A stretch of DNA of 64,000 nt from Escherichia coli. GTDB lineage: Bacteria; Pseudomonadota; Gammaproteobacteria; Enterobacterales; Enterobacteriaceae. Numbering within the stretch: the stretch's first letter is position 1; every line of letters begins with the position of its first letter. This document shows, piece by piece, positions 1,766 to 18,633 of this stretch. Under the pieces are notes generated by a model. It worked only from the letters and a program-made list of their open reading frames with translations, made no database searches and had not been told where the DNA came from. A program made the translations under genes and the position numbers. The stretch is taken from assembly GCF_003018255.1 (NCBI RefSeq), contig NZ_CP027440.1; one strand, given 5' to 3'.

Positions 1766-3159
1766 GCGGTACCCTCACGACGCGGTGCGCGTTTGCGTGG
1801 ACGACGAGTACGGCGACGCGGTGACGGTTCTTCATCCAGTTCGTTAAGCATCCCTTTTTGGTCTGGTGGCGCGGAAACCTGGAACTCACCCCACCATTTC
1901 ACCAGACGTTGCAGTTCAGCGTTACGCTCAACTTCGGCTCGTAAGGCCAACAGGTCGTATGCCGCACGGAACTTAGGATGCTCCAGCAGTTTCCAGGCGC
2001 GTTTACCCTGACGTCGGGACATACGCAACTGCAACTGCCAGATATCGCGGGTTAACGTCGTCAGACGTTTCGGGATCGCCAGTGAACGACAGGCTTCGTC
2101 CAGCACGTCGTTCATCGCCAGCGCGAAAGCGTCGTGATAGGTCAGGCCGCTTTCCTGGGCGATCTTCTGTGCCGTCTCCAGCAGTGGGTACCAGAACATG
2201 GCGGCAAACAGGAACGCCGGGTTCACGCGCATATCGTTATGGATACGCGTATCGGTATTCTTCAGCACCTGTTCAATGATCCGCTCCATCGGGCTGTCGC
2301 CATTTTCCGTGAAGTAGCGGGTAATGGTCGGGAACAGCGGCTGGAACAGGTGATATTCACACAGCAGCTTATAGGTTTCGTAACCGTAGCCCGCTTGCAG
2401 CAGTTTCAAAGATTCTTCAAACAGACGTGCCGGTGGAATATCGTTCAGCAGGGTAGCCAGGCGAGGGATCGGTTCTGCGGTTTCAGGACTGATACGCATA
2501 CCCAATTTGGCGGCAAAACGTACCGCGCGCAGCATCCGTACCGGATCTTCACGGTAGCGCGTTTCCGGGTTACCAATCAGACGGATAACGCCGTCCTTCA
2601 GATCCTTCATGCCGCCAACGTAATCACGGACGGTAAAATCTGCCACGCTGTAATACAGGCTGTTGATAGTGAAATCGCGGCGCTGGGCGTCTTCTTCGAT
2701 GGAGCCGAAAATGTTGTCGCGCAGCAACATGCCGTTTTGCCCGCGTTGGGAGGTCGTGCGGTCGCTGACGTTACCTTCGTGATGTCCACGGAAGGTCGCA
2801 ACTTCGATAATCTCCGGGCCAAACATCACATGAGCCAGACGGAAACGGCGACCCACCAGGCGGCAGTTACGGAACAGTTTACGTACCTGTTCAGGCGTGG
2901 CGTTAGTGGTTACGTCAAAATCTTTCGGCTTTTTGCCAAGTAACAGGTCGCGCACGCCACCGCCAACCAGCCAGGCTTCGTATCCCGCTTTATTGAGCCT
3001 GTACATTACCTTCAGGGCATTTTCACTGATATCTTTGCGGGAAATAGCATGCTGCTCACGCGGGATCACCGTCACCTGTGGACGGGCGACTGCCTGTTCA
3101 GCCTCGCTTTCCTCGCGGCTTAGCACCTTGCGGCAAAAATTAGCGACTCGGGTAAAAAT
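1762..3159 (-). CDS. pcnB: Poly(A) polymerase I
   Basis: ORF track 1762..3180 (-). Nucleotidyltransferase motifs ([10 protein letters not shown]...DFD). Start placed at the ATT codon 3157-3159 (IFTRVANF...), known to be the initiation codon in E. coli, giving 465 aa; the upstream TTG at 3178-3180 is the ORF-track alternative. Confidence 0.9.
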
Positions 3160-8567: not shown

Positions 8568-8660
8568 AGACCAAAGCAAATTTGAGAGATATCTTCTTCT
8601 GTCTTGCAACAGAAGAACAGAAAATCGGGCTTTTGCGCCTGAATATTGCGGAGAAAAAGC

Positions 8661-11192
8661 ATGGCCGGGAATGACCGCGAGCCAATTGGACGCAAAGGGA
8701 AACCGACGCGTCCGGTCAAACAAAAGGTAAGCCGTCGTCGTTACGAAGATGACGATTACGACGATTATGATGACTATGAGGATGAAGAACCGATGCCGCG
8801 CAAAGGTAAGGGCAAAGGCAAAGGGCGTAAGCCTCGTGGCAAACGCGGCTGGCTATGGCTGCTGCTAAAACTGGCTATCGTTTTTGCCGTGCTGATCGCC
8901 ATTTACGGCGTTTATCTCGATCAAAAAATTCGCAGCCGTATTGATGGCAAGGTCTGGCAATTGCCCGCGGCAGTTTATGGCCGAATGGTCAACCTTGAGC
9001 CAGACATGACCATCAGCAAGAACGAAATGGTGAAGCTGCTGGAGGCGACCCAGTATCGTCAGGTGTCGAAAATGACCCGTCCTGGCGAATTTACCGTGCA
9101 GGCCAACAGCATTGAGATGATCCGCCGTCCGTTTGATTTCCCGGACAGTAAAGAAGGGCAGGTGCGTGCGCGTCTGACCTTTGATGGCGATCATCTGGCG
9201 ACGATCGTCAATATGGAGAACAACCGTCAGTTTGGTTTCTTCCGTCTTGATCCGCGCCTGATCACCATGATCTCCTCGCCAAACGGTGAGCAGCGTTTGT
9301 TTGTGCCGCGCAGTGGTTTCCCGGATTTGCTGGTGGATACTTTGCTGGCGACAGAAGACCGCCATTTCTACGAGCATGATGGGATCAGTCTCTACTCCAT
9401 CGGACGTGCGGTGCTGGCAAACCTGACCGCCGGACGCACGGTGCAGGGTGCGAGTACGCTGACGCAACAGCTGGTGAAAAACCTGTTCCTCTCCAGCGAG
9501 CGCTCTTACTGGCGTAAAGCGAACGAAGCTTACATGGCGCTGATCATGGACGCGCGTTACAGCAAAGACCGTATTCTTGAGCTGTATATGAACGAGGTGT
9601 ATCTCGGTCAGAGCGGCGACAACGAAATCCGCGGCTTCCCGCTGGCGAGCTTGTATTACTTTGGTCGCCCAGTAGAAGAATTGAGCCTCGACCAGCAGGC
9701 GCTGTTGGTGGGTATGGTGAAAGGGGCGTCCATCTACAATCCGTGGCGTAACCCGAAACTGGCGTTGGAGCGACGTAATCTGGTACTGCGTCTGCTGCAA
9801 CAGCAACAGATTATTGATCAAGAACTCTATGACATGTTGAGTGCACGTCCGCTGGGGGTTCAGCCGCGCGGTGGGGTGATCTCTCCACAGCCAGCCTTTA
9901 TGCAACTGGTGCGTCAGGAGCTGCAGGCAAAACTGGGCGATAAGGTAAAAGATCTCTCCGGCGTGAAGATCTTCACTACCTTTGACTCGGTGGCCCAGGA
10001 CGCGGCAGAAAAAGCCGCCGTGGAAGGCATTCCGGCACTGAAGAAACAGCGTAAGTTGAGCGATCTTGAAACCGCGATTGTGGTCGTCGACCGCTTTAGT
10101 GGTGAAGTTCGTGCGATGGTTGGAGGTTCTGAGCCGCAGTTTGCGGGCTACAACCGTGCGATGCAGGCGCGTCGTTCGATTGGTTCCCTTGCAAAACCAG
10201 CGACTTATCTGACGGCCTTAAGCCAGCCGAAAATCTATCGCCTGAACACGTGGATTGCGGATGCGCCAATCGCGCTACGTCAGCCGAATGGCCAGGTCTG
10301 GTCACCGCAGAACGATGACCGTCGTTATAGCGAAAGCGGCAGAGTGATGCTGGTAGATGCGTTGACCCGTTCGATGAACGTGCCGACGGTGAATCTGGGC
10401 ATGGCGTTGGGGCTGCCTGCGGTTACGGAGACCTGGATTAAACTGGGTGTGCCGAAAGATCAACTGAATCCAGTTCCAGCAATGTTGTTGGGGGCGTTGA
10501 ACTTAACGCCAATCGAAGTGGCGCAGGCGTTCCAGACCATCGCCAGCGGTGGTAACCGTGCTCCGCTTTCTGCACTGCGTTCGGTAATCGCGGAAGATGG
10601 CAAGGTGCTGTATCAGAGCTTCCCGCAGGCGGAACGCGCTGTTCCGGCGCAGGCGGCGTATCTGACACTATGGACCATGCAGCAGGTGGTACAACGTGGT
10701 ACGGGGCGTCAGCTTGGGGCGAAATACCCGAACCTGCATCTGGCAGGGAAAACAGGGACTACCAACAATAACGTAGATACCTGGTTTGCGGGCATTGACG
10801 GCAGTACGGTGACCATCACCTGGGTAGGCCGTGATAACAACCAACCGACCAAATTGTATGGAGCCAGCGGGGCAATGTCGATTTATCAGCGTTATCTGGC
10901 TAACCAGACGCCAACACCGCTGAATCTTGTTCCGCCAGAAGATATTGCAGATATGGGCGTGGACTATGACGGCAACTTTGTTTGCAGCGGTGGCATGCGT
11001 GTCTTGCCGGTCTGGACCAGCGATCCGCAATCGCTGTGCCAGCAGAGTGAGATGCAGCAGCAGCCGTCAGGCAATCCGTTTGATCAGTCTTCTCAGCCGC
11101 AGCAACAGCCGCAACAGCAACCTGCTCAGCAAGAGCAGAAAGACAGCGACGGTGTAGCCGGTTGGATCAAGGATATGTTTGGTAGTAATTAA
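8661..11192 (+). CDS. mrcB: Penicillin-binding protein 1B (bifunctional glycosyltransferase/transpeptidase)
   Basis: ORF track 8646..11192 (+); start at [13 protein letters not shown]...; acidic [14 protein letters not shown] tract, TM helix [29 protein letters not shown] and SxxK motifs, Q/P-rich C-terminus. Confidence 0.93.
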
Positions 11193-11208
11193 CGTCTAAG
11201 CGTGACAT

Positions 11209-11233
11209 ACCGGATGGCGAGTAGCCATCCGGT
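11209..11233 (+). terminator. Perfect 10-bp stem hairpin (accggatggc-gagta-gccatccggt) just downstream of mrcB stop; no U-tract
   Basis: Read from sequence; followed by A-rich not T-rich sequence, so function as intrinsic terminator is uncertain. Confidence 0.3.
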
Positions 11234-11340
11234 AAAATAACATCCCACCCAAAGTATTAACCCTTTCTTTTCATCTGGTTGTTTATTAACCCTTCAGGAA
11301 CGCTCAGATTGCGTACCGCTTGCGAACCCGCCAGCGTTTC

Positions 11341-11390
11341 GAATATTATCTTATCTTTATAATAATCATTCTCGTTTACGTTATCATTCA
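11341..11390 (+). promoter_or_regulatory. Fur-box-like AT-rich repeats (gaatattatcttatc / tttataataatcattctcg / ttatcattc) in the fhuA promoter region
   Basis: About 14/19 match to the GATAATGATAATCATTATC consensus, 20-70 bp upstream of fhuA start; fhuA is a classical Fur-repressed gene. Confidence 0.5.
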
Positions 11391-11411
11391 CTTTATATCA
11401 GAGATATACCA

Positions 11412-13601
11412 ATGGCGCGTTCCAAAACTGCTCAGCCAAAACACTCACTGCGTAAAATCGCAGTTGTAGTAGCCACAGCGGTTAGCGGCATGTCTGTTTA
11501 TGCACAGGCAGCGGTTGAACCGAAAGAAGACACTATCACCGTTACCGCTGCACCTGCGCCGCAAGAAAGCGCATGGGGACCGGCTGCAACTATTGCGGCG
11601 AAGCACTCTGCTACTGCGACTAAAACGGATACACCAATTGAAAAAACGCCGCAGTCTATTTCGGTTGTGACAAATGAAGAGATGCAGATGCATCAATTTC
11701 AGTCTGTAAAAGAAGCATTAGGTTATACACCTGGCGTTACGGTTAGCAGTCGTGGTGCTTCTAATACATATGATTTTGTTATTATTCGTGGTTTCTCATC
11801 TGTTGGTCTGAATCAAAATAATTACCTTGATGGACTAAAACTTCAGGGCAACTTTTATAACGATGCTGTGATTGATCCTTACATGCTCGAGAGGGTTGAA
11901 CTGATGCGCGGGCCGACGTCTGTTCTCTATGGGAAAAGTAATCCTGGTGGGATTATTTCTATGGTGAGTAAGCGTCCGACAACTGAACCCCTGAAAGAAA
12001 TTCAGTTTAAAATGGGGACGGATAATCTGTTTCAGACCGGATTCGATTTCAGTGATGCGCTGGATGATAACGGTGAGTTCTCCTACCGTTTGACTGGCCT
12101 CGCACGCTCAACAAACGAACAGCAGAAAAACTCTGAATCTCAGCGTTATACCATTGCTCCATCATTCTCATGGCGTCCAGACGACAAAACCAATTTTACT
12201 TTCCTGTCCTATTTTCAGAACGAACCAGAAACGGGTTATTACGGTTGGTTGCCGAAAGAGGGGACCGTTGAGCCATTGCCTAATGGTAAGCGTCTACCGA
12301 CTGACTTCAATGAAGGTGCATCGAATAATACATACTCCCGTAACCAGAAAATGGTGGGATATAGTTTTGAACATGGTTTTAATGACACCTTCACCGTGCG
12401 TCAGAATCTGCGTTTCAGTGAAATGAAAACCTCACAGAAAAGTGTTTATGGCACAGGGATTGCCAGCGATGGTCATACCCTAAACCGCGGGACAGTGGTG
12501 GATAATGAGCGTCTGCAAAACTTTAGCGTTGATACCCAACTTGAAAGTAAATTTGCTACAGGTGAAGTCGAGCATACTTTGCTGACAGGGGTAGACTTCA
12601 TGCGTATGCGCAATGATATCAATGCCAGCTTTGGATCTGCACCATCCATCGATCTTTATAACAAATATCATCCTGAATACTTTGCATTTGGTAACGCAGA
12701 GCCATACCAAATGAATGAAAGCAAACAAACAGGTATTTATGTTCAGGATCAGGCGGAATGGAATAAATGGGTATTCACTCTGGGGGGACGCTACGATTGG
12801 TCTAAGCAAGCGACCACTGTTCGTGAAAACTCTTATACGCCGACTGAAGGTTATATTGAGCGTAATGATCATCAGTTCACCTGGCGCGGTGGTGTAAACT
12901 ACTTATTCGATAATGGTATTTCACCTTACTTTAGTTATAGCCAGTCCTTTGAACCGAGTGCTTTCGATCTGTGGAGCAACCCGCGCGTTTCCTATAAGCC
13001 ATCGAAAGGTGAACAGTATGAAGCTGGCGTAAAATATGTTCCGAATGATATGCCGGTCGTTGTTACGGGCGCAGTCTATCAATTGACGAAAACAAATAAC
13101 CTGACAGCAGACCCAACAAACCCGTTAGCGCAAGTCCCAGCAGGTGAGATTCGCGCTCGTGGTGTGGAACTTGAAGCAAAAGCGGCGTTAAATGCCAATA
13201 TTAACTTGACGGCTTCTTATACCTACACAGATGCGGAATACACCAAAGACACCAATCTCAAAGGTAAAACTCCAGAACAAGTACCGGAGCATATGGCATC
13301 TCTCTGGGGGGATTATACCTTCAATGAAGGGCCGCTTTCTGGTTTAACATTGGGAACAGGTGGTCGTTTTATTGGTTCCAGCTATGGTGATCCGGCGAAC
13401 ACTTTTAAAGTGGGTAGCGCAGCTGTAATGGATGCTGTTGTAAAATATGATCTGGCACGCTTTGGTATGGCGGGATCCAGCCTTGCTGTGAACGTCAACA
13501 ATTTGCTCGATCGTGAGTATGTTGCCAGTTGCTTCCAGACCTATGGCTGCTTCTGGGGCGCAGAACGTCAGGTCGTTGCAACCGCAACCTTCCGTTTCTA
13601 A
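11412..13601 (+). CDS. fhuA: Ferrichrome outer-membrane transporter / phage receptor FhuA (TonB-dependent), divergent allele
   Basis: ORF track 11412..13601 (+), 729 aa; signal peptide MARSKTAQPKHSLRKIAVVVATAVSGMSVYAQA, TonB box DTITVTA, C-terminal ...CFWGAERQVVATATFRF. Confidence 0.93.
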   Translation: MARSKTAQPKHSLRKIAVVVATAVSGMSVYAQAAVEPKEDTITVTAAPAPQESAWGPAATIAAKHSATATKTDTPIEKTPQSISVVTNEEMQMHQFQSVKEALGYTPGVTVSSRGASNTYDFVIIRGFSSVGLNQNNYLDGLKLQGNFYNDAVIDPYMLERVELMRGPTSVLYGKSNPGGIISMVSKRPTTEPLKEIQFKMGTDNLFQTGFDFSDALDDNGEFSYRLTGLARSTNEQQKNSESQRYTIAPSFSWRPDDKTNFTFLSYFQNEPETGYYGWLPKEGTVEPLPNGKRLPTDFNEGASNNTYSRNQKMVGYSFEHGFNDTFTVRQNLRFSEMKTSQKSVYGTGIASDGHTLNRGTVVDNERLQNFSVDTQLESKFATGEVEHTLLTGVDFMRMRNDINASFGSAPSIDLYNKYHPEYFAFGNAEPYQMNESKQTGIYVQDQAEWNKWVFTLGGRYDWSKQATTVRENSYTPTEGYIERNDHQFTWRGGVNYLFDNGISPYFSYSQSFEPSAFDLWSNPRVSYKPSKGEQYEAGVKYVPNDMPVVVTGAVYQLTKTNNLTADPTNPLAQVPAGEIRARGVELEAKAALNANINLTASYTYTDAEYTKDTNLKGKTPEQVPEHMASLWGDYTFNEGPLSGLTLGTGGRFIGSSYGDPANTFKVGSAAVMDAVVKYDLARFGMAGSSLAVNVNNLLDREYVASCFQTYGCFWGAERQVVATATFRF

Positions 13602-13651
13602 TTTTTTCTTTGGGGCACGGATTTCCGTGCCCGCTTCACAAGTTGGCTGTT

Positions 13652-14449
13652 ATGCAGGAATACACGAATCATTCCGATACCACTTTTGCACTGCGTAATA
13701 TCTCCTTTCGTGTGCCAGGGCGCACGCTTTTGCATCCGCTGTCGTTAACCTTTCCTGCCGGGAAAGTGACTGGTTTGATTGGTCACAACGGTTCTGGTAA
13801 ATCCACTCTGCTCAAAATGCTTGGCCGTCATCAGCCACCGTCGGAAGGCGAAATTCTTCTTGATGCCCAGCCGCTGGAAAGCTGGAGCAGCAAAGCGTTC
13901 GCCCGCAAAGTGGCTTATTTGCCGCAGCAGCTTCCTCCGGCAGAAGGGATGACCGTGCGTGAACTGGTGGCGATTGGTCGTTACCCGTGGCATGGCGCAC
14001 TGGGGCGCTTTGGTGCGGCAGATCGCGAAAAGGTCGAAGAGGCGATTTCGCTGGTTGGCTTAAAACCGCTGGCGCATCGGCTGGTCGATAGTCTCTCTGG
14101 CGGCGAACGTCAGCGGGCGTGGATCGCTATGCTGGTGGCGCAGGATAGCCGTTGTCTGTTGCTCGACGAACCGACCTCGGCGCTGGATATCGCCCACCAG
14201 GTTGATGTGCTGGCGCTGGTGCATCGTTTAAGTCAGGAACGTGGTCTGACGGTCATTGCCGTGCTGCACGATATTAATATGGCTGCGCGCTACTGTGATT
14301 ATCTGGTCGCCCTGCGCGGTGGTGAAATGATTGCTCAGGGAACGCCTGCGGAAATTATGCGCGGCGAAACCCTCGAAATGATTTATGGCATCCCGATGGG
14401 TATTCTGCCGCATCCGGCGGGTGCTGCACCTGTGAGTTTTGTTTATTGA
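13652..14449 (+). CDS. fhuC: Iron(III)-hydroxamate ABC transporter ATP-binding protein
   Basis: ORF track 13529..14449 (+); start at ATG 13652 (MQEYTNHSDTTFALRN..., 265 aa); Walker A GHNGSGKST, signature LSGGERQRA. Confidence 0.93.
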   Translation: MQEYTNHSDTTFALRNISFRVPGRTLLHPLSLTFPAGKVTGLIGHNGSGKSTLLKMLGRHQPPSEGEILLDAQPLESWSSKAFARKVAYLPQQLPPAEGMTVRELVAIGRYPWHGALGRFGAADREKVEEAISLVGLKPLAHRLVDSLSGGERQRAWIAMLVAQDSRCLLLDEPTSALDIAHQVDVLALVHRLSQERGLTVIAVLHDINMAARYCDYLVALRGGEMIAQGTPAEIMRGETLEMIYGIPMGILPHPAGAAPVSFVY

Positions 14450-15339
14450 TGAGCGGCTTACCTCTTATTTCGCGCCGCCGACTGTTAACGGCGATGGCGC
14501 TTTCTCCGTTGTTATGGCAGATGAATACCGCCCACGCGGCGATTATTGATCCCAATCGTATTGTGGCGCTGGAGTGGTTGCCGGTGGAATTACTGCTGGC
14601 GCTCGGCATCGTGCCTTACGGCGTGGCGGACACCATCAACTATCGCCTGTGGGTCAGCGAACCGCCATTGCCGGACTCAGTGATTGACGTTGGTTTGCGT
14701 ACAGAACCCAACCTTGAACTGCTGACCGAAATGAAACCGTCGTTTATGATCTGGTCGGCAGGATATGGCCCTTCACCAGAAATGCTGGCACGTATTGCGC
14801 CGGGGCGCGGATTTAACTTCAGCGACGGCAAACAGCCGCTGGCGATGGCGCGTAAATCACTGACGGAAATGGCAGATTTACTTAACCTGCAAAGCGCAGC
14901 AGAAACGCATTTAGCGCAATATGAAGACTTTATCCGCAGCATGAAACCCCGCTTTGTGAAGCGTGGTGCACGCCCGTTATTGCTGACGACGCTTATCGAT
15001 CCGCGCCATATGTTGGTCTTCGGTCCAAACAGCTTGTTCCAGGAAATTCTTGATGAGTACGGCATCCCAAATGCCTGGCAAGGGGAAACCAACTTCTGGG
15101 GCAGTACCGCCGTCAGTATCGATCGTCTGGCGGCGTATAAAGACGTTGATGTGCTCTGTTTTGATCACGACAACAGCAAAGACATGGATGCGCTAATGGC
15201 AACCCCGCTGTGGCAGGCCATGCCGTTTGTCCGTGCAGGACGTTTTCAGCGCGTTCCGGCGGTCTGGTTCTATGGCGCGACGCTTTCGGCAATGCACTTT
15301 GTGCGTATTCTGGATAACGCCATCGGAGGTAAAGCGTGA
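14449..15339 (+). CDS. fhuD: Iron(III)-hydroxamate periplasmic binding protein
   Basis: ORF track 14446..15339 (+); ATG 14449 overlaps fhuC stop by 1 nt; MSGLPLISRRRLLTAMALSPLLWQ (Tat-like signal). Confidence 0.92.
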   Translation: MSGLPLISRRRLLTAMALSPLLWQMNTAHAAIIDPNRIVALEWLPVELLLALGIVPYGVADTINYRLWVSEPPLPDSVIDVGLRTEPNLELLTEMKPSFMIWSAGYGPSPEMLARIAPGRGFNFSDGKQPLAMARKSLTEMADLLNLQSAAETHLAQYEDFIRSMKPRFVKRGARPLLLTTLIDPRHMLVFGPNSLFQEILDEYGIPNAWQGETNFWGSTAVSIDRLAAYKDVDVLCFDHDNSKDMDALMATPLWQAMPFVRAGRFQRVPAVWFYGATLSAMHFVRILDNAIGGKA

Positions 15340-17318
15340 GTAAACGAATTGCGCTTTTTCCGGCGTTATTGCTGGCGCTGCTGGTGATTGTCGCTACGGC
15401 GCTCACCTGGATGAACTTCTCGCAGGCGTTGCCGCGCAGCCAGTGGGCGCAGGCCGCCTGGTCGCCGGATATTGACGTCATCGAGCAGATGATTTTTCAC
15501 TACAGCTTGTTGCCGCGTCTGGCGATTTCGCTGCTGGTGGGCGCGGGCCTGGGGCTGGTGGGCGTGCTGTTTCAGCAAGTGCTGCGTAACCCGCTGGCGG
15601 AACCGACGACGTTGGGCGTTGCAACAGGCGCGCAACTGGGGATTACCGTCACTACGCTCTGGGCGATCCCAGGTGCTATGGCGAGCCAGTTTGCTGCGCT
15701 GGCAGGGGCTTGCGTTGTTGGCTTAATTGTCTTTGGCGTCGCGTGGGGGAAACGGCTGTCGCCGGTAACGCTGATCCTCGCGGGGCTGGTAGTGAGCCTT
15801 TATTGTGGGGCAATCAATCAGTTACTGGTTATCTTCCATCACGACCAGCTACAAAGCATGTTCCTGTGGAGCACCGGAACGCTGACGCAAACCGACTGGG
15901 GCGGCGTTGAGCGTTTATGGCCGCAGCTGCTGGGCGGCGTGATGCTGACGTTATTGCTACTTCGCCCGTTAACCCTGATGGGGCTTGATGATGGCGTGGC
16001 GCGCAATCTCGGTCTGGCCTTGTCGCTGGCGCGTCTGGCGGCGCTGTCGCTGGCGATAGTCATCAGTGCGCTGCTGGTGAATGCAGTGGGGATTATCGGC
16101 TTTATCGGGTTGTTCGCGCCGCTGCTGGCAAAAATGCTGGGGGCGCGGCGTCTGCTGCCACGGTTAATGCTGGCGTCGCTGATTGGTGCGTTAATTCTGT
16201 GGCTTTCTGATCAAATCATCCTCTGGCTGACTCGCGTGTGGATGGAAGTTTCCACCGGTTCGGTCACTGCGTTGATCGGTGCGCCGCTGCTACTGTGGCT
16301 GCTGCCGCGTTTACGCAGCATTAGCGCGCCGGATATGAAGGTCAACGATCGTGTCGCGGCTGAACGCCAACATGTGCTGGCGTTTGCCCTCGCGGGCGGC
16401 GTGCTGCTGTTGATGGCTGTGGTAGTGGCGCTGTCGTTTGGTCGTGATGCGCACGGCTGGACGTGGGCGAGCGGGGCGTTGCTCGAGGATTTAATGCCCT
16501 GGCGCTGGCCGCGAATTATGGCGGCGCTGTTTGCGGGCGTCATGCTGGCGGTGGCGGGCTGTATTATTCAGCGGCTGACCGGAAACCCGATGGCAAGCCC
16601 GGAAGTGCTGGGGATTAGCTCCGGCGCGGCGTTTGGCGTGGTGTTGATGCTGTTTCTGGTGCCGGGTAATGCCTTTGGCTGGCTGTTACCTGCAGGCAGT
16701 CTCGGCGCGGCGGTGACGCTGTTGATCATTATGATCGCCGCCGGACGCGGTGGATTTTCCCCACACCGCATGTTACTGGCGGGGATGGCGTTAAGTACCG
16801 CGTTCACCATGCTTTTGATGATGTTGCAGGCAAGTGGTGACCCGCGAATGGCGCAAGTGCTGACCTGGATCTCCGGTTCGACCTACAACGCGACCGATGC
16901 GCAGGTCTGGCGCACGGGAATTGTGATGGTAATTTTGCTGGCGATTAACCCGCTGTGCCGCCGCTGGCTGACCATTTTACCGCTGGGCGGTGATACCGCA
17001 CGAGCCGTAGGAATGGCGCTGACGCCGACGCGAATTGCGCTGCTGCTATTAGCGGCTTGCCTGACGGCGACCGCGACGATGACTATTGGACCGTTGAGTT
17101 TTGTTGGTTTAATGGCACCGCATATTGCGCGGATGATGGGTTTTCGACGGACGATGCCACACATCGTAATTTCGGCGCTGGTGGGTGGTTTACTGCTGGT
17201 GTTCGCTGACTGGTGTGGGCGGATGGTATTGTTTCCATTCCAGATCCCGGCGGGGCTGCTGTCAACCTTTATCGGCGCGCCATATTTTATCTATTTGTTG
17301 AGAAAGCAGAGCCGTTAA
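15336..17318 (+). CDS. fhuB: Iron(III)-hydroxamate ABC transporter permease (fused duplicated domains)
   Basis: ORF track 15336..17318 (+), 660 aa; GTG start overlapping fhuD stop by 4 nt; two homologous halves, highly hydrophobic. Confidence 0.93.
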   Translation: MSKRIALFPALLLALLVIVATALTWMNFSQALPRSQWAQAAWSPDIDVIEQMIFHYSLLPRLAISLLVGAGLGLVGVLFQQVLRNPLAEPTTLGVATGAQLGITVTTLWAIPGAMASQFAALAGACVVGLIVFGVAWGKRLSPVTLILAGLVVSLYCGAINQLLVIFHHDQLQSMFLWSTGTLTQTDWGGVERLWPQLLGGVMLTLLLLRPLTLMGLDDGVARNLGLALSLARLAALSLAIVISALLVNAVGIIGFIGLFAPLLAKMLGARRLLPRLMLASLIGALILWLSDQIILWLTRVWMEVSTGSVTALIGAPLLLWLLPRLRSISAPDMKVNDRVAAERQHVLAFALAGGVLLLMAVVVALSFGRDAHGWTWASGALLEDLMPWRWPRIMAALFAGVMLAVAGCIIQRLTGNPMASPEVLGISSGAAFGVVLMLFLVPGNAFGWLLPAGSLGAAVTLLIIMIAAGRGGFSPHRMLLAGMALSTAFTMLLMMLQASGDPRMAQVLTWISGSTYNATDAQVWRTGIVMVILLAINPLCRRWLTILPLGGDTARAVGMALTPTRIALLLLAACLTATATMTIGPLSFVGLMAPHIARMMGFRRTMPHIVISALVGGLLLVFADWCGRMVLFPFQIPAGLLSTFIGAPYFIYLLRKQSR

Positions 17319-17324
17319 TAGAAT

Positions 17325-17345
17325 GCCTCGCCCGGTGGGCGAGGC
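17325..17345. terminator. Hairpin gcctcgcc-cggtg-ggcgaggc between convergent fhuB and hemL (candidate bidirectional terminator)
   Basis: Read from sequence; occupies most of the 34-nt fhuB-hemL spacer. Confidence 0.4.
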
Positions 17346-17352
17346 AAAATCA

Positions 17353-18633
17353 TCACAACTTCGCAAACACCCGACGTGCAGCATCGATGGTGTTATTGAT
17401 ATCTTCCATGCTGTGCGCCACGGACATAAAGCCCGCTTCAAACGCTGACGGTGCCAGATAAACACCTTCGTCCAGCATCATATGGAAGAAACGCTTAAAG
17501 CGTTCCACGTCACAGGCCATCACATCCTGATAGCACGTCACGGACTCGGCGTCGGTAAAGAAAATACCGAACATGCCGCCAACGTGGTTTACCACCAGCG
17601 GAATTCCGGCTTCTTCTGCCGCTTCCAGCAGACCTTCTGCCAGACGTGTTGTCAGCTCATCCAGCGTCTCGTGAACGCCCGGCTGTGCGACTTCATTCAG
17701 ACAGGCGAAACCAGCTGCCATCGCAATCGGGTTACCGGAAAGCGTACCCGCCTGATAGACCGGACCAGTCGGGGCCAGCGCATCCATTACATCACGACGA
17801 CCACCGAATGCGCCTACCGGCATTCCACCGCCGATGATTTTGCCGAGGCAGGTTAAATCTGGCACTACGCCGTAATAATCCTGTGCGCCAGCTAGCGCTA
17901 CGCGGAAACCGGTCATCACTTCATCGATGATCAGCAACGCGCCAAATTCGTCACACAGCGCACGCAGACCTGGCAGGAACTCTGGCAGCGGTGGAACGCA
18001 GTTCATATTGCCTGCCACCGGCTCGACGATAATACAGGCAATCTCATGCGGGTACTGTTCGAACGCGGCGCGTACAGAGGCCAGATCGTTATAAGTACAG
18101 GTTAAGGTATGTTTGGCGAAATCTGCCGGAACACCCGGCGAGTTTGGCTGGCCTAACGTGAGTGCGCCAGAACCGGCTTTCACCAGCAGGCAGTCAGCGT
18201 GACCGTGGTAACAACCTTCAAATTTAATGATTTTGTCGCGACCGGTAAAACCACGGGCCAGGCGGATTGCGCTCATGGTCGCTTCAGTGCCGGAGTTCAC
18301 CATGCGCACCATATCCATGGTCGGGACCAGTTCGGTCACCAGTTGCGCCATTTTCACTTCCATTTCGGTCGGTGCACCAAAGCTTAAACCACGCTCGGCG
18401 GCTTCAATCACGGCATTGCGGATCGCCGGATGGTTATGGCCCAGCACCATCGGCCCCCAGGAACCGACATAATCGATATAGGCTTTGCCATCAACATCGT
18501 ACAGATAAGCGCCGTCCGCTTTTTCGATAAACAGTGGAGTGCCGCCCACGCCAGTAAAGGCGCGAACAGGGGAGTTCACACCGCCAGGGATCAGCTCGCG
18601 CGCTGCGCTGTAAAGATTTTCAGACTTACTCAT
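17353..18633 (-). CDS. hemL: Glutamate-1-semialdehyde 2,1-aminomutase
   Basis: ORF track 17353..18633 (-), 426 aa, [26 protein letters not shown]...; class III aminotransferase. Confidence 0.96.

Follow-up and report, generated by a model that had tools for sequence, protein, structure and literature searches.

What does a strong hairpin do when it lies inside an operon, between the gene of an outer-membrane receptor and the genes of an ABC transporter, and no run of T follows it? The question is raised by the fhuACDB operon in the 64,000-nt stretch of Escherichia coli DNA analysed here (contig NZ_CP027440.1; hereafter the window). A sequence-only reading of the window had described such a hairpin in the 50-nt spacer between fhuA and fhuC and had taken it for a stability or processing element more than a terminator, one that could contribute to higher expression of the receptor than of the transporter. 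We examined the spacer in the window, in E. coli genomes, and in related Enterobacteriaceae, and compared it with published transcript data and with hairpins of known function.

The hairpin in the fhuA-fhuC spacer

The gene order in the window is fhuA, hairpin, fhuC, fhuD, fhuB. The features referred to throughout are listed here with their window coordinates.

8646-11192: mrcB, an NCBIfam equivalog
11412-13601, plus strand: fhuA coding sequence (729-aa allele), the cistron upstream of the hairpin; NCBIfam NF007465 FhuA equivalog, 1411 bits
13602-13612, plus strand: pyrimidine-rich 5' flank TTTTTTCTTTG, from the stop codon to the stem
13613-13620, plus strand: hairpin 5' arm GGGCACGG; 99% of stem cells paired across 65 distinct sequences
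13621-13624, plus strand: loop ATTT; other species have TTCG, TTT, CTTG, or further variants here, and ATTA also occurs in E. coli
13625-13632, plus strand: hairpin 3' arm CCGTGCCC
13633-13639, plus strand: tail GCTTCAC, at the U-tract position of relatives and eroded here
13640-13646, plus strand: probable weak Shine-Dalgarno sequence AAGTTGG, 5 nt upstream of the fhuC ATG; identity 0.82 across species
13652-14449, plus strand: fhuC coding sequence, first gene of the downstream fhuCDB transporter module; NCBIfam NF007863 FhuC equivalog, 578 bits
14446-15339: fhuD, an NCBIfam equivalog whose start overlaps the fhuC stop codon
15336-17318: fhuB, an NCBIfam equivalog whose start overlaps the fhuD stop codon
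17353-18633, minus strand: hemL, an NCBIfam equivalog convergent to fhuB

The fhuA stop codon TAA occupies 13599-13601 and the fhuC ATG 13652-13654, which leaves the 50-nt spacer at 13602-13651. Arms, loop, spacer length, and coordinates were all as the sequence-only reading had given them, and it was also right that the hairpin lies inside an operon, at the receptor/transporter boundary of fhuACDB. The stem has 8 Watson-Crick pairs, 7 of them G-C, closed by a 4-nt loop, and so has the GC-rich stem-loop of intrinsic terminators. The absence of a T-run was likewise evident: the 7 nt after the stem, GCTTCAC, contain only 2 T, and the tail GCTTCACA has 2 T in 8 nt, short of a U-rich tract (~ 5 or more U in 8 nt). 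The terminator scan of the window did not call this hairpin.

The structure is more stable than its composition would predict. The spacer folds at -18.9 kcal/mol, compared with -10.9 +/- 2.6 in 200 dinucleotide shuffles (z = -3.0), none of which folded as well, and the stem alone accounts for -15.9 kcal/mol. The hairpin pattern occurred once in the 64-kb window, where 0.03 occurrences were expected, and was still a single match when two mismatches were allowed. A REP/BIME repeat was rejected as an identity for the element because it is single-copy in the window; it also occupies an orthologous position in ~ 80 species rather than being dispersed, and it is unlike what we take to be the REP consensus. 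Rfam 15 covariance models gave no match up to E = 10 on either strand of 11000-18000. A terminator of an antisense transcript was rejected as well, the minus-strand stem being followed by the A-rich CAAAGAAAAAA.

Perfect GC-rich stems of at least 8 bp are enriched in the window, with 17 entries, counted as 11 distinct hairpins, compared with 2.5 +/- 1.9 in approximate shuffles. Two further perfect hairpins lie close to the fhu operon. Between the convergent fhuB and hemL stop codons there is a perfect 10-bp hairpin at 17324-17346, TGCCTCGCCC-GGT-GGGCGAGGCA. It was called terminator-like on the hemL strand, where TTCTATTAAC comes after it, but on the fhuB strand the next bases are AAAATCATC, which leaves the end of the fhu operon likewise without a U-run. 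At 11208-11234, 16 nt past the mrcB stop codon, a perfect 11-bp palindromic hairpin, TACCGGATGGC-GAGTA-GCCATCCGGTA, precedes AAATAACATC and has a T-run on neither strand; possibly mrcB ends here in a REP-like or stabilising element.

The window is chromosomal E. coli DNA. The fhuA coding sequence is 100% identical to that of E. coli strain 104, as is the 351-nt fhuA-fhuC junction, which we used as a query and which matched on fhuA/fhuC in 5,423 of 5,426 complete genomes. The window fhuA encodes 729 aa, compared with 747 aa in K-12, and of 5,425 E. coli records only 76 were at least 99% identical to it across the junction, most being at 90-95%. These figures are consistent with the mosaic exchange of fhuA alleles that has been reported (bioRxiv 10.1101/320069). 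The spacer variant TTTTTTCTTT...GCTTCAC goes with a minority of genomes.

Conservation of the stem across Enterobacteriaceae

A FhuC scan with one genome per species yielded 80 Enterobacteriaceae loci. A perfect stem of at least 7 bp was found at the same place in all 77 loci of other species in which an intact fhuA directly precedes fhuC, or in 79 loci when the window and K-12 are included. Its position is nearly as constant: the distance from stop codon to stem was 8-11 nt in 60 of 65 distinct spacers, and that from stem to ATG was 17-19 nt in 47 of 65. In an alignment of the 65 distinct sequences (A2), 99.0% of stem cells were paired, compared with 95.1% in column shuffles, and sliding the 3' partners along the alignment lowered the pairing to 34-63%. 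At one pair (41-53), 50 sequences have A-U and the other 15 have G-C, with no unpaired intermediate, and double changes were also seen in outer and inner pairs of the stem; the observed covariation score was reached by 0 of 500 shuffles. RNAalifold recovered the same stem from the alignment. At the orthologous site of Cedecea sulfonylureivorans, a different and longer stem was observed (GGATGCGGCG/CGCCGCATCC).

Mean pairwise identity was 0.87 in the stem, 0.54 at four-fold degenerate sites of fhuC, 0.46 in the 5' flank, and 0.44 in the tail. The flank is nonetheless 56% T on average, although its sequence is poorly conserved. The fhuA-fhuC stem is thus not a chance feature but a conserved one across Enterobacteriaceae, and its identity relative to the neutral fhuC sites indicates purifying selection. 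As a negative control, we used a terminator-like hairpin within fhuC at 13709-13726 (CGTGTGC-CAGG-GCGCACG, followed by CTTTTGCATC), which was dismissed as a chance coding feature because its pairing was kept in only 2 of 69 distinct orthologs.

In one case, a fhuA-fhuC locus typical of Enterobacteriaceae, whose FhuC is 94% identical and which has the same hairpin, lies on a contig labelled 'Chryseobacterium sp. 18061'. The assembly is probably contaminated or mislabelled.

A variable U-run behind a fixed stem

The sequence that follows the stem behaves very differently from the stem itself. Across the 65 distinct spacers, the first 8 nt after the stem contained a mean of 4.2 T, against a background of 24%, and 24 of the spacers had at least 5 T there. 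Orthologs in Enterobacter, Leclercia, Pluralibacter, Superficieibacter, and Huaxiibacter have 7 T in these 8 nt. Representative tails are CCC-TTTTTATTT in Enterobacter, TTTTTTATT in Pluralibacter, and TTTTCTTT in Leclercia, the three genera in which the terminator scan called the ortholog. Citrobacter and Salmonella (S. arizonae) have the intermediate GTTTTAC. Klebsiella (for example, CTGACCAG), Raoultella, Buttiauxella, and one Cedecea have essentially no U in the tail. The tail differs even within Citrobacter, Kosakonia, Lelliottia, Pluralibacter, and Cedecea, and evolves at close to the neutral rate. A d'Aubenton-Carafa-type score was positive in 53 of 81 sequences, with values of +42 in Enterobacter, +13 in Citrobacter and Salmonella, -13 in K-12, and -28.5 in the window, which is among the lowest; these scores are only indicative, the formula having been combined with modern energy parameters.

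In Escherichia, including E. whittamii, the U-tract is eroded throughout. The E. coli tails are ATTTCAC (K-12 type), GTTTCAC, and GCTTCAC (the window). The K-12-type spacer was matched exactly over 81 nt in 2,740 of 5,423 genomes, and the exact variant of the window in 74. Among nine sampled E. coli spacer variants, changes fell in the 5' flank, in the loop (ATTA), and in the first two bases of the tail, while the only two changes in the stem were both from G-C to G-U.

The stem is equally conserved in the U-poor lineages, namely E. coli, Klebsiella, Raoultella, Cedecea, and Buttiauxella. A labile U-tract behind a stem that hardly changes indicates that the stem has a value independent of efficient termination. 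This upholds one half of the stability-over-termination contrast drawn by the sequence-only reading, since the stem matters without a U-run. The other half was drawn too sharply, given the tails with at least 5 T and the scan calls in three genera: in many species, the orthologous element looks like a canonical intra-operon terminator. Taken with these calls, the U-runs suggest a leaky intra-operon terminator whose U-tract has been eroded in Escherichia.

Might the E. coli hairpin still terminate? It could be a weak, non-canonical intrinsic terminator here too, at which a minority of transcription events stop at AUUU or CUU, perhaps aided by NusA, and differential expression would then be transcriptional rather than decay-based. 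The ortholog tails do form a continuum (TTTTTATTT, GTTTTAC, GTTTCAC, GCTTCAC), and weaker U-tracts tend to accompany stronger stems (Spearman 0.35, p = 0.004, uncorrected for phylogeny). Further, the hairpin after fecA, compared below, has only UUUUAG behind its stem, yet a 3' end has been mapped 8 nt past it. The window tail, however, not only has 2 T in 8 nt but begins with G-C, in line with the negative scan and the strongly negative d-type score, and Klebsiella has kept the stem in front of an essentially U-less tail. K-12 Term-seq data also bear on this point: the tables of Adams et al. (LB OD 0.4, LB OD 2.0, and a third sheet) list no fhuA 3' end. As the ends of the neighbouring mrcB, fhuB, and hemL are also without entries, and the two LB sheets contain nothing between 160 kb and 175 kb, the absence of fhuA from these tables counts for little. 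On this evidence, we consider residual termination in E. coli unlikely.

Loci in which fhuA is lost or displaced

Three of the 80 loci, from three different lineages, have a broken arrangement. In one (L037), fhuA has been cleanly deleted, and a Fur-box promoter is fused to the spacer; in the second (L078), fhuA is reduced to a remnant; and in the third (L079, Enterobacter sp. R1(2018)), fhuA is intact, and an insertion of ~ 85 nt separates its stop codon from the hairpin. All three stems carry disruptive mismatches, while AAGTTGG and fhuC are intact. Mismatched stems were therefore found in 3 of 3 broken arrangements and in 0 of 79 intact ones (Fisher p = 1.1e-5, from a small number of loci). 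The decay can be rapid, as the fhuC of the remnant locus is only ~ 6% diverged from that of a relative with a perfect stem. It follows that the stem is kept only while it directly follows fhuA, and its maintenance thus depends on fhuA lying directly upstream. The insertion in the third locus (2867-3000 region) contains two other strong hairpins, including CAAAGAGGGAAAG-CTGC-TTTTCCTTCTTTG; it may represent a small inserted element or a 3' structure that replaces the old one.

The fhuA promoter region of the window (11320-11395) contains a promoter-like site, TTGCGA, 18 nt, TATTAT, together with a Fur-box-like ATAATAATCATTCTCGTTTACGTTATCATT. The latter is kept in both loci that lack a full fhuA, where it lies just upstream of fhuC. 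The promoter scan of the window found no promoter-like site on the plus strand from 12329 to 14722, nor was one present in the four orthologous regions scanned, and an internal fhuCDB promoter in or near the spacer was rejected on these grounds.

The number of decay lineages, three, is small, and a role in translational coupling from fhuA to fhuC would account for them just as well. Under such a role the hairpin would serve fhuC translation, either by looping out 20 nt and so setting the distance from the terminating ribosome to the ribosome-binding site, or by masking that site until fhuA is translated. The tight distances on both sides of the stem agree with this, as does a weak fhuC Shine-Dalgarno sequence (predicted anti-SD duplex of only -3.3 kcal/mol), and the single-sequence MFE structure of the 141-nt region pairs CUAAUUU at the fhuA stop codon with AAGUUGG. 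That outer helix was rejected as unsupported across species: 82% of its cells were paired, one pair was broken in 44 of 65 sequences and another in 19 of 65, covariation was almost absent, and RNAalifold did not predict it. In addition, the Shine-Dalgarno sequence and the ATG lie outside the hairpin, a translational role would leave unexplained both the T enrichment after the stem and the canonical terminators in many genera, and the fecA counterpart is documented, in the review cited below, to act at the RNA level. We regard a role in fhuC translation as quite improbable.

The AAGTTGG motif is an observation of its own. It is conserved despite its poor match to a Shine-Dalgarno sequence, whereas the corresponding fhuB sequence, GGAGG, reaches -10.8 kcal/mol. 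The motif may be a ribosome-binding site that is weak by design, or it may serve another purpose.

The broken loci also bear on whether the E. coli stem has any function at all, or is the relic of a former terminator that has been retained for lack of time. Erosion of the U-tract all over Escherichia is what a relic would lead one to expect, and so is the missing fhuA 3' end in the Term-seq tables, with the same qualification about neighbouring genes. Against this, the stem is perfect in several unrelated U-poor lineages (Klebsiella, Raoultella, Cedecea, Buttiauxella, and some Citrobacter) in which tail and flanks evolve at close to the neutral rate; lineages without fhuA gained disruptive stem substitutions quickly, within the ~ 6% of fhuC divergence noted above; and the nine E. 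coli variants vary around the stem, touching it only by changes that preserve pairing as G-U. A functionless relic is, in our judgement, very improbable.

Transcript data and the fate of the fhuA 3' end

A full-text literature search returned no description of a fhuA-fhuC hairpin; the original sequence papers, which lay beyond the search, may have noted dyad symmetry. Data on RNA decay in K-12 come from Maes et al. (PMC5389530), who describe a fhuA 3' fragment of ~ 700 nt that accumulates only without poly(A) polymerase, in a pcnB mutant. In the same account, loss of the enzyme affects fhuC and fhuD more than it does fhuA, and structured, hairpin-ended 3' fragments are stated to need PAP I for their decay. 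The ~ 700-nt fragment would fit a fhuA fragment that ends in the hairpin.

A stem-loop could also act on the downstream side of a cut. If RNase E cleaved in the U-rich flank, the processed fhuCDB mRNA would start with the stem-loop, which could slow decay that depends on the 5' end. Stem-loops at the 5' end stabilise E. coli mRNAs such as ompA, and a single-stranded U-rich stretch does lie just upstream of the stem. In the two loci where fhuCDB is transcribed straight from the Fur-box promoter, however, the hairpin would still help and yet has decayed, and the U-runs 3' of the stem in relatives would go unexplained. The cleavage near the 3' end of fhuA in K-12 is, moreover, reported by Maes et al. 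to be independent of RNase E (PMC5389530). Protection of the fhuCDB message from its 5' end is accordingly highly improbable, and the least probable of the explanations weighed here.

Further 3' ends within the operon are given in supplementary file 2 of Adams et al. (PMC7815308), which we take to list Rho-dependent (bicyclomycin-sensitive) ends. It places one inside fhuB at K-12 position 173,376 (plus strand) and an antisense one at 173,016 (minus strand), both corresponding to the 3' part of fhuB in the window.

A probable 3'-end stem-loop that may decouple receptor from transporter

The reading that we favour, with a confidence only somewhat above even, is that the fhuA cistron ends in this stem-loop, which uncouples the expression of the receptor from that of the transporter; ancestrally it was a leaky terminator, and in E. 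coli it most likely serves chiefly to hold back decay. Where relatives have a U-run, a fraction of the polymerases would terminate behind fhuA while the others continued into fhuCDB. Such termination can only be leaky, since fhuCDB itself lacks a promoter-like site, and in the locus with the clean deletion these genes are driven by the fhuA promoter. With the U-run eroded in Escherichia (AUUUCAC in K-12, GCUUCAC in the window), little termination is expected there. The retained stem would most likely act post-transcriptionally in E. coli, by blocking 3'-to-5' exonucleases, so that the fhuA portion of the message would outlive the fhuCDB portion after the latter had been cleaved and broken down. 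Termination and protection from decay would both leave more fhuA mRNA than fhuCDB mRNA. That the hairpin would thereby yield more receptor than transporter is suggested by analogy with the fecA-fecB hairpin and, indirectly, by the pcnB-dependent fhuA 3' fragment; for the strain of the window, the effect on transcripts is a prediction.

The combination of a fixed stem with a fast-changing U-run invites a further, speculative idea, to which we give about as little credence as to residual termination in E. coli. The U-run may have come and gone repeatedly, also inside individual genera, switching the decoupling from termination to protection from decay and back. The ratio of receptor to transporter would in this way be tuned to how many other hydroxamate receptors (FhuE, IutA, FoxA) of a lineage feed the shared FhuCDB.

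If decoupling by the stem-loop is correct, it would account for how a single Fur-regulated promoter supplies, within the same operon, much of an outer-membrane receptor but little of an ABC transporter. Phages T1, T5, and phi80 also use FhuA as their receptor, as do colicin M and albomycin. For engineered fhuA (tonA) deletions, what is done with the hairpin and the spacer would bear on fhuCDB expression. The strongly selected stem with its fast-changing U-tract offers a small natural data set on the evolution of terminator strength. For annotation, it means that the counterpart of one genus's textbook terminator can, in a species of a neighbouring genus, be an orthologous hairpin that lacks a U-run.

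Comparison with known systems

Hairpins inside operons, both terminators and stabilisers, are textbook elements. The fhu hairpin resembles intrinsic (Rho-independent) terminators in its GC-rich 8-bp stem, its 4-nt loop, its stability of ~ -16 kcal/mol, and its position just past a stop codon. It differs from them, in the window, in having no U-tract (2 T in 8 nt), and because it lies inside an operon whose downstream genes need to be expressed, it cannot be an efficient stop. With intra-operon stabilisers that block 3' exonucleases, it shares a stable stem-loop placed 3' of the cistron that is needed in larger amounts, for which no U-run is required. Such stabilisers include the hairpin of Rhodobacter pufBA/LMX and, reportedly, the malE-malF REP described by Newbury et al. 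in 1987.

That a hairpin without a U-run can define a 3' end inside an operon is indicated by the treB-treC spacer (TAATTTTCTTCGGGGCGCAATTGCGCCCCCTCGC), which resembles the fhu spacer in placing a U-less GC hairpin between two genes of an operon. In K-12 Term-seq (PMC7815308), a very strong primary 3' end is listed there, at 4,464,728 on the minus strand.

The closest counterpart is the fecA-fecB hairpin of K-12, which likewise lies between the gene of a TonB-dependent receptor and the ABC-transporter genes of the same operon. Its spacer reads TGA, 9 nt, GCCCGG-CTTG-CCGGGC, TTTTAG, with the fecB ATG 19 nt after the stem. The two spacers thus have almost the same geometry, with 9-11 nt between the stop codon and a GC-rich hairpin, a loop of 4 nt, and 19 nt from the stem to the ATG, although the fec stem has 6 bp followed by UUUUAG and the fhu stem has 8 bp followed, in the window, by GCUUCAC. 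As the two hairpins have no sequence similarity, the relation is one of analogy rather than homology. The primary fecA 3' end listed in the Term-seq data (4,514,320; Adams et al., PMC7815308, supplementary file 1) falls 8 nt after the fec stem by our placement. Braun, Hartmann and Hantke (2022, PMC9249621), citing Enz et al. 1995, describe a 2.5-kb fecA mRNA on northern blots, a 6-kb fec transcript that is trimmed to this more stable 2.5-kb mRNA, and a hairpin downstream of fecA that lowers transcription of fecBCDE, genes that are poorly transcribed.

Two properties of the fecA type are found at the fhu locus. A stable hairpin stands directly after the upstream cistron, within the operon and before genes that are needed at a lower level, and the structure is under selection that depends on the upstream cistron, as seen in its pairing, its identity, and the mismatches in 3 of 3 broken loci. 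As a second case beside fecA, the fhu hairpin suggests a general receptor-hairpin-transporter design in iron-uptake operons. With fecA already known as a direct analogue, what is added here is modest, namely the comparison across species, which shows the stem fixed and the U-tract changing fast.
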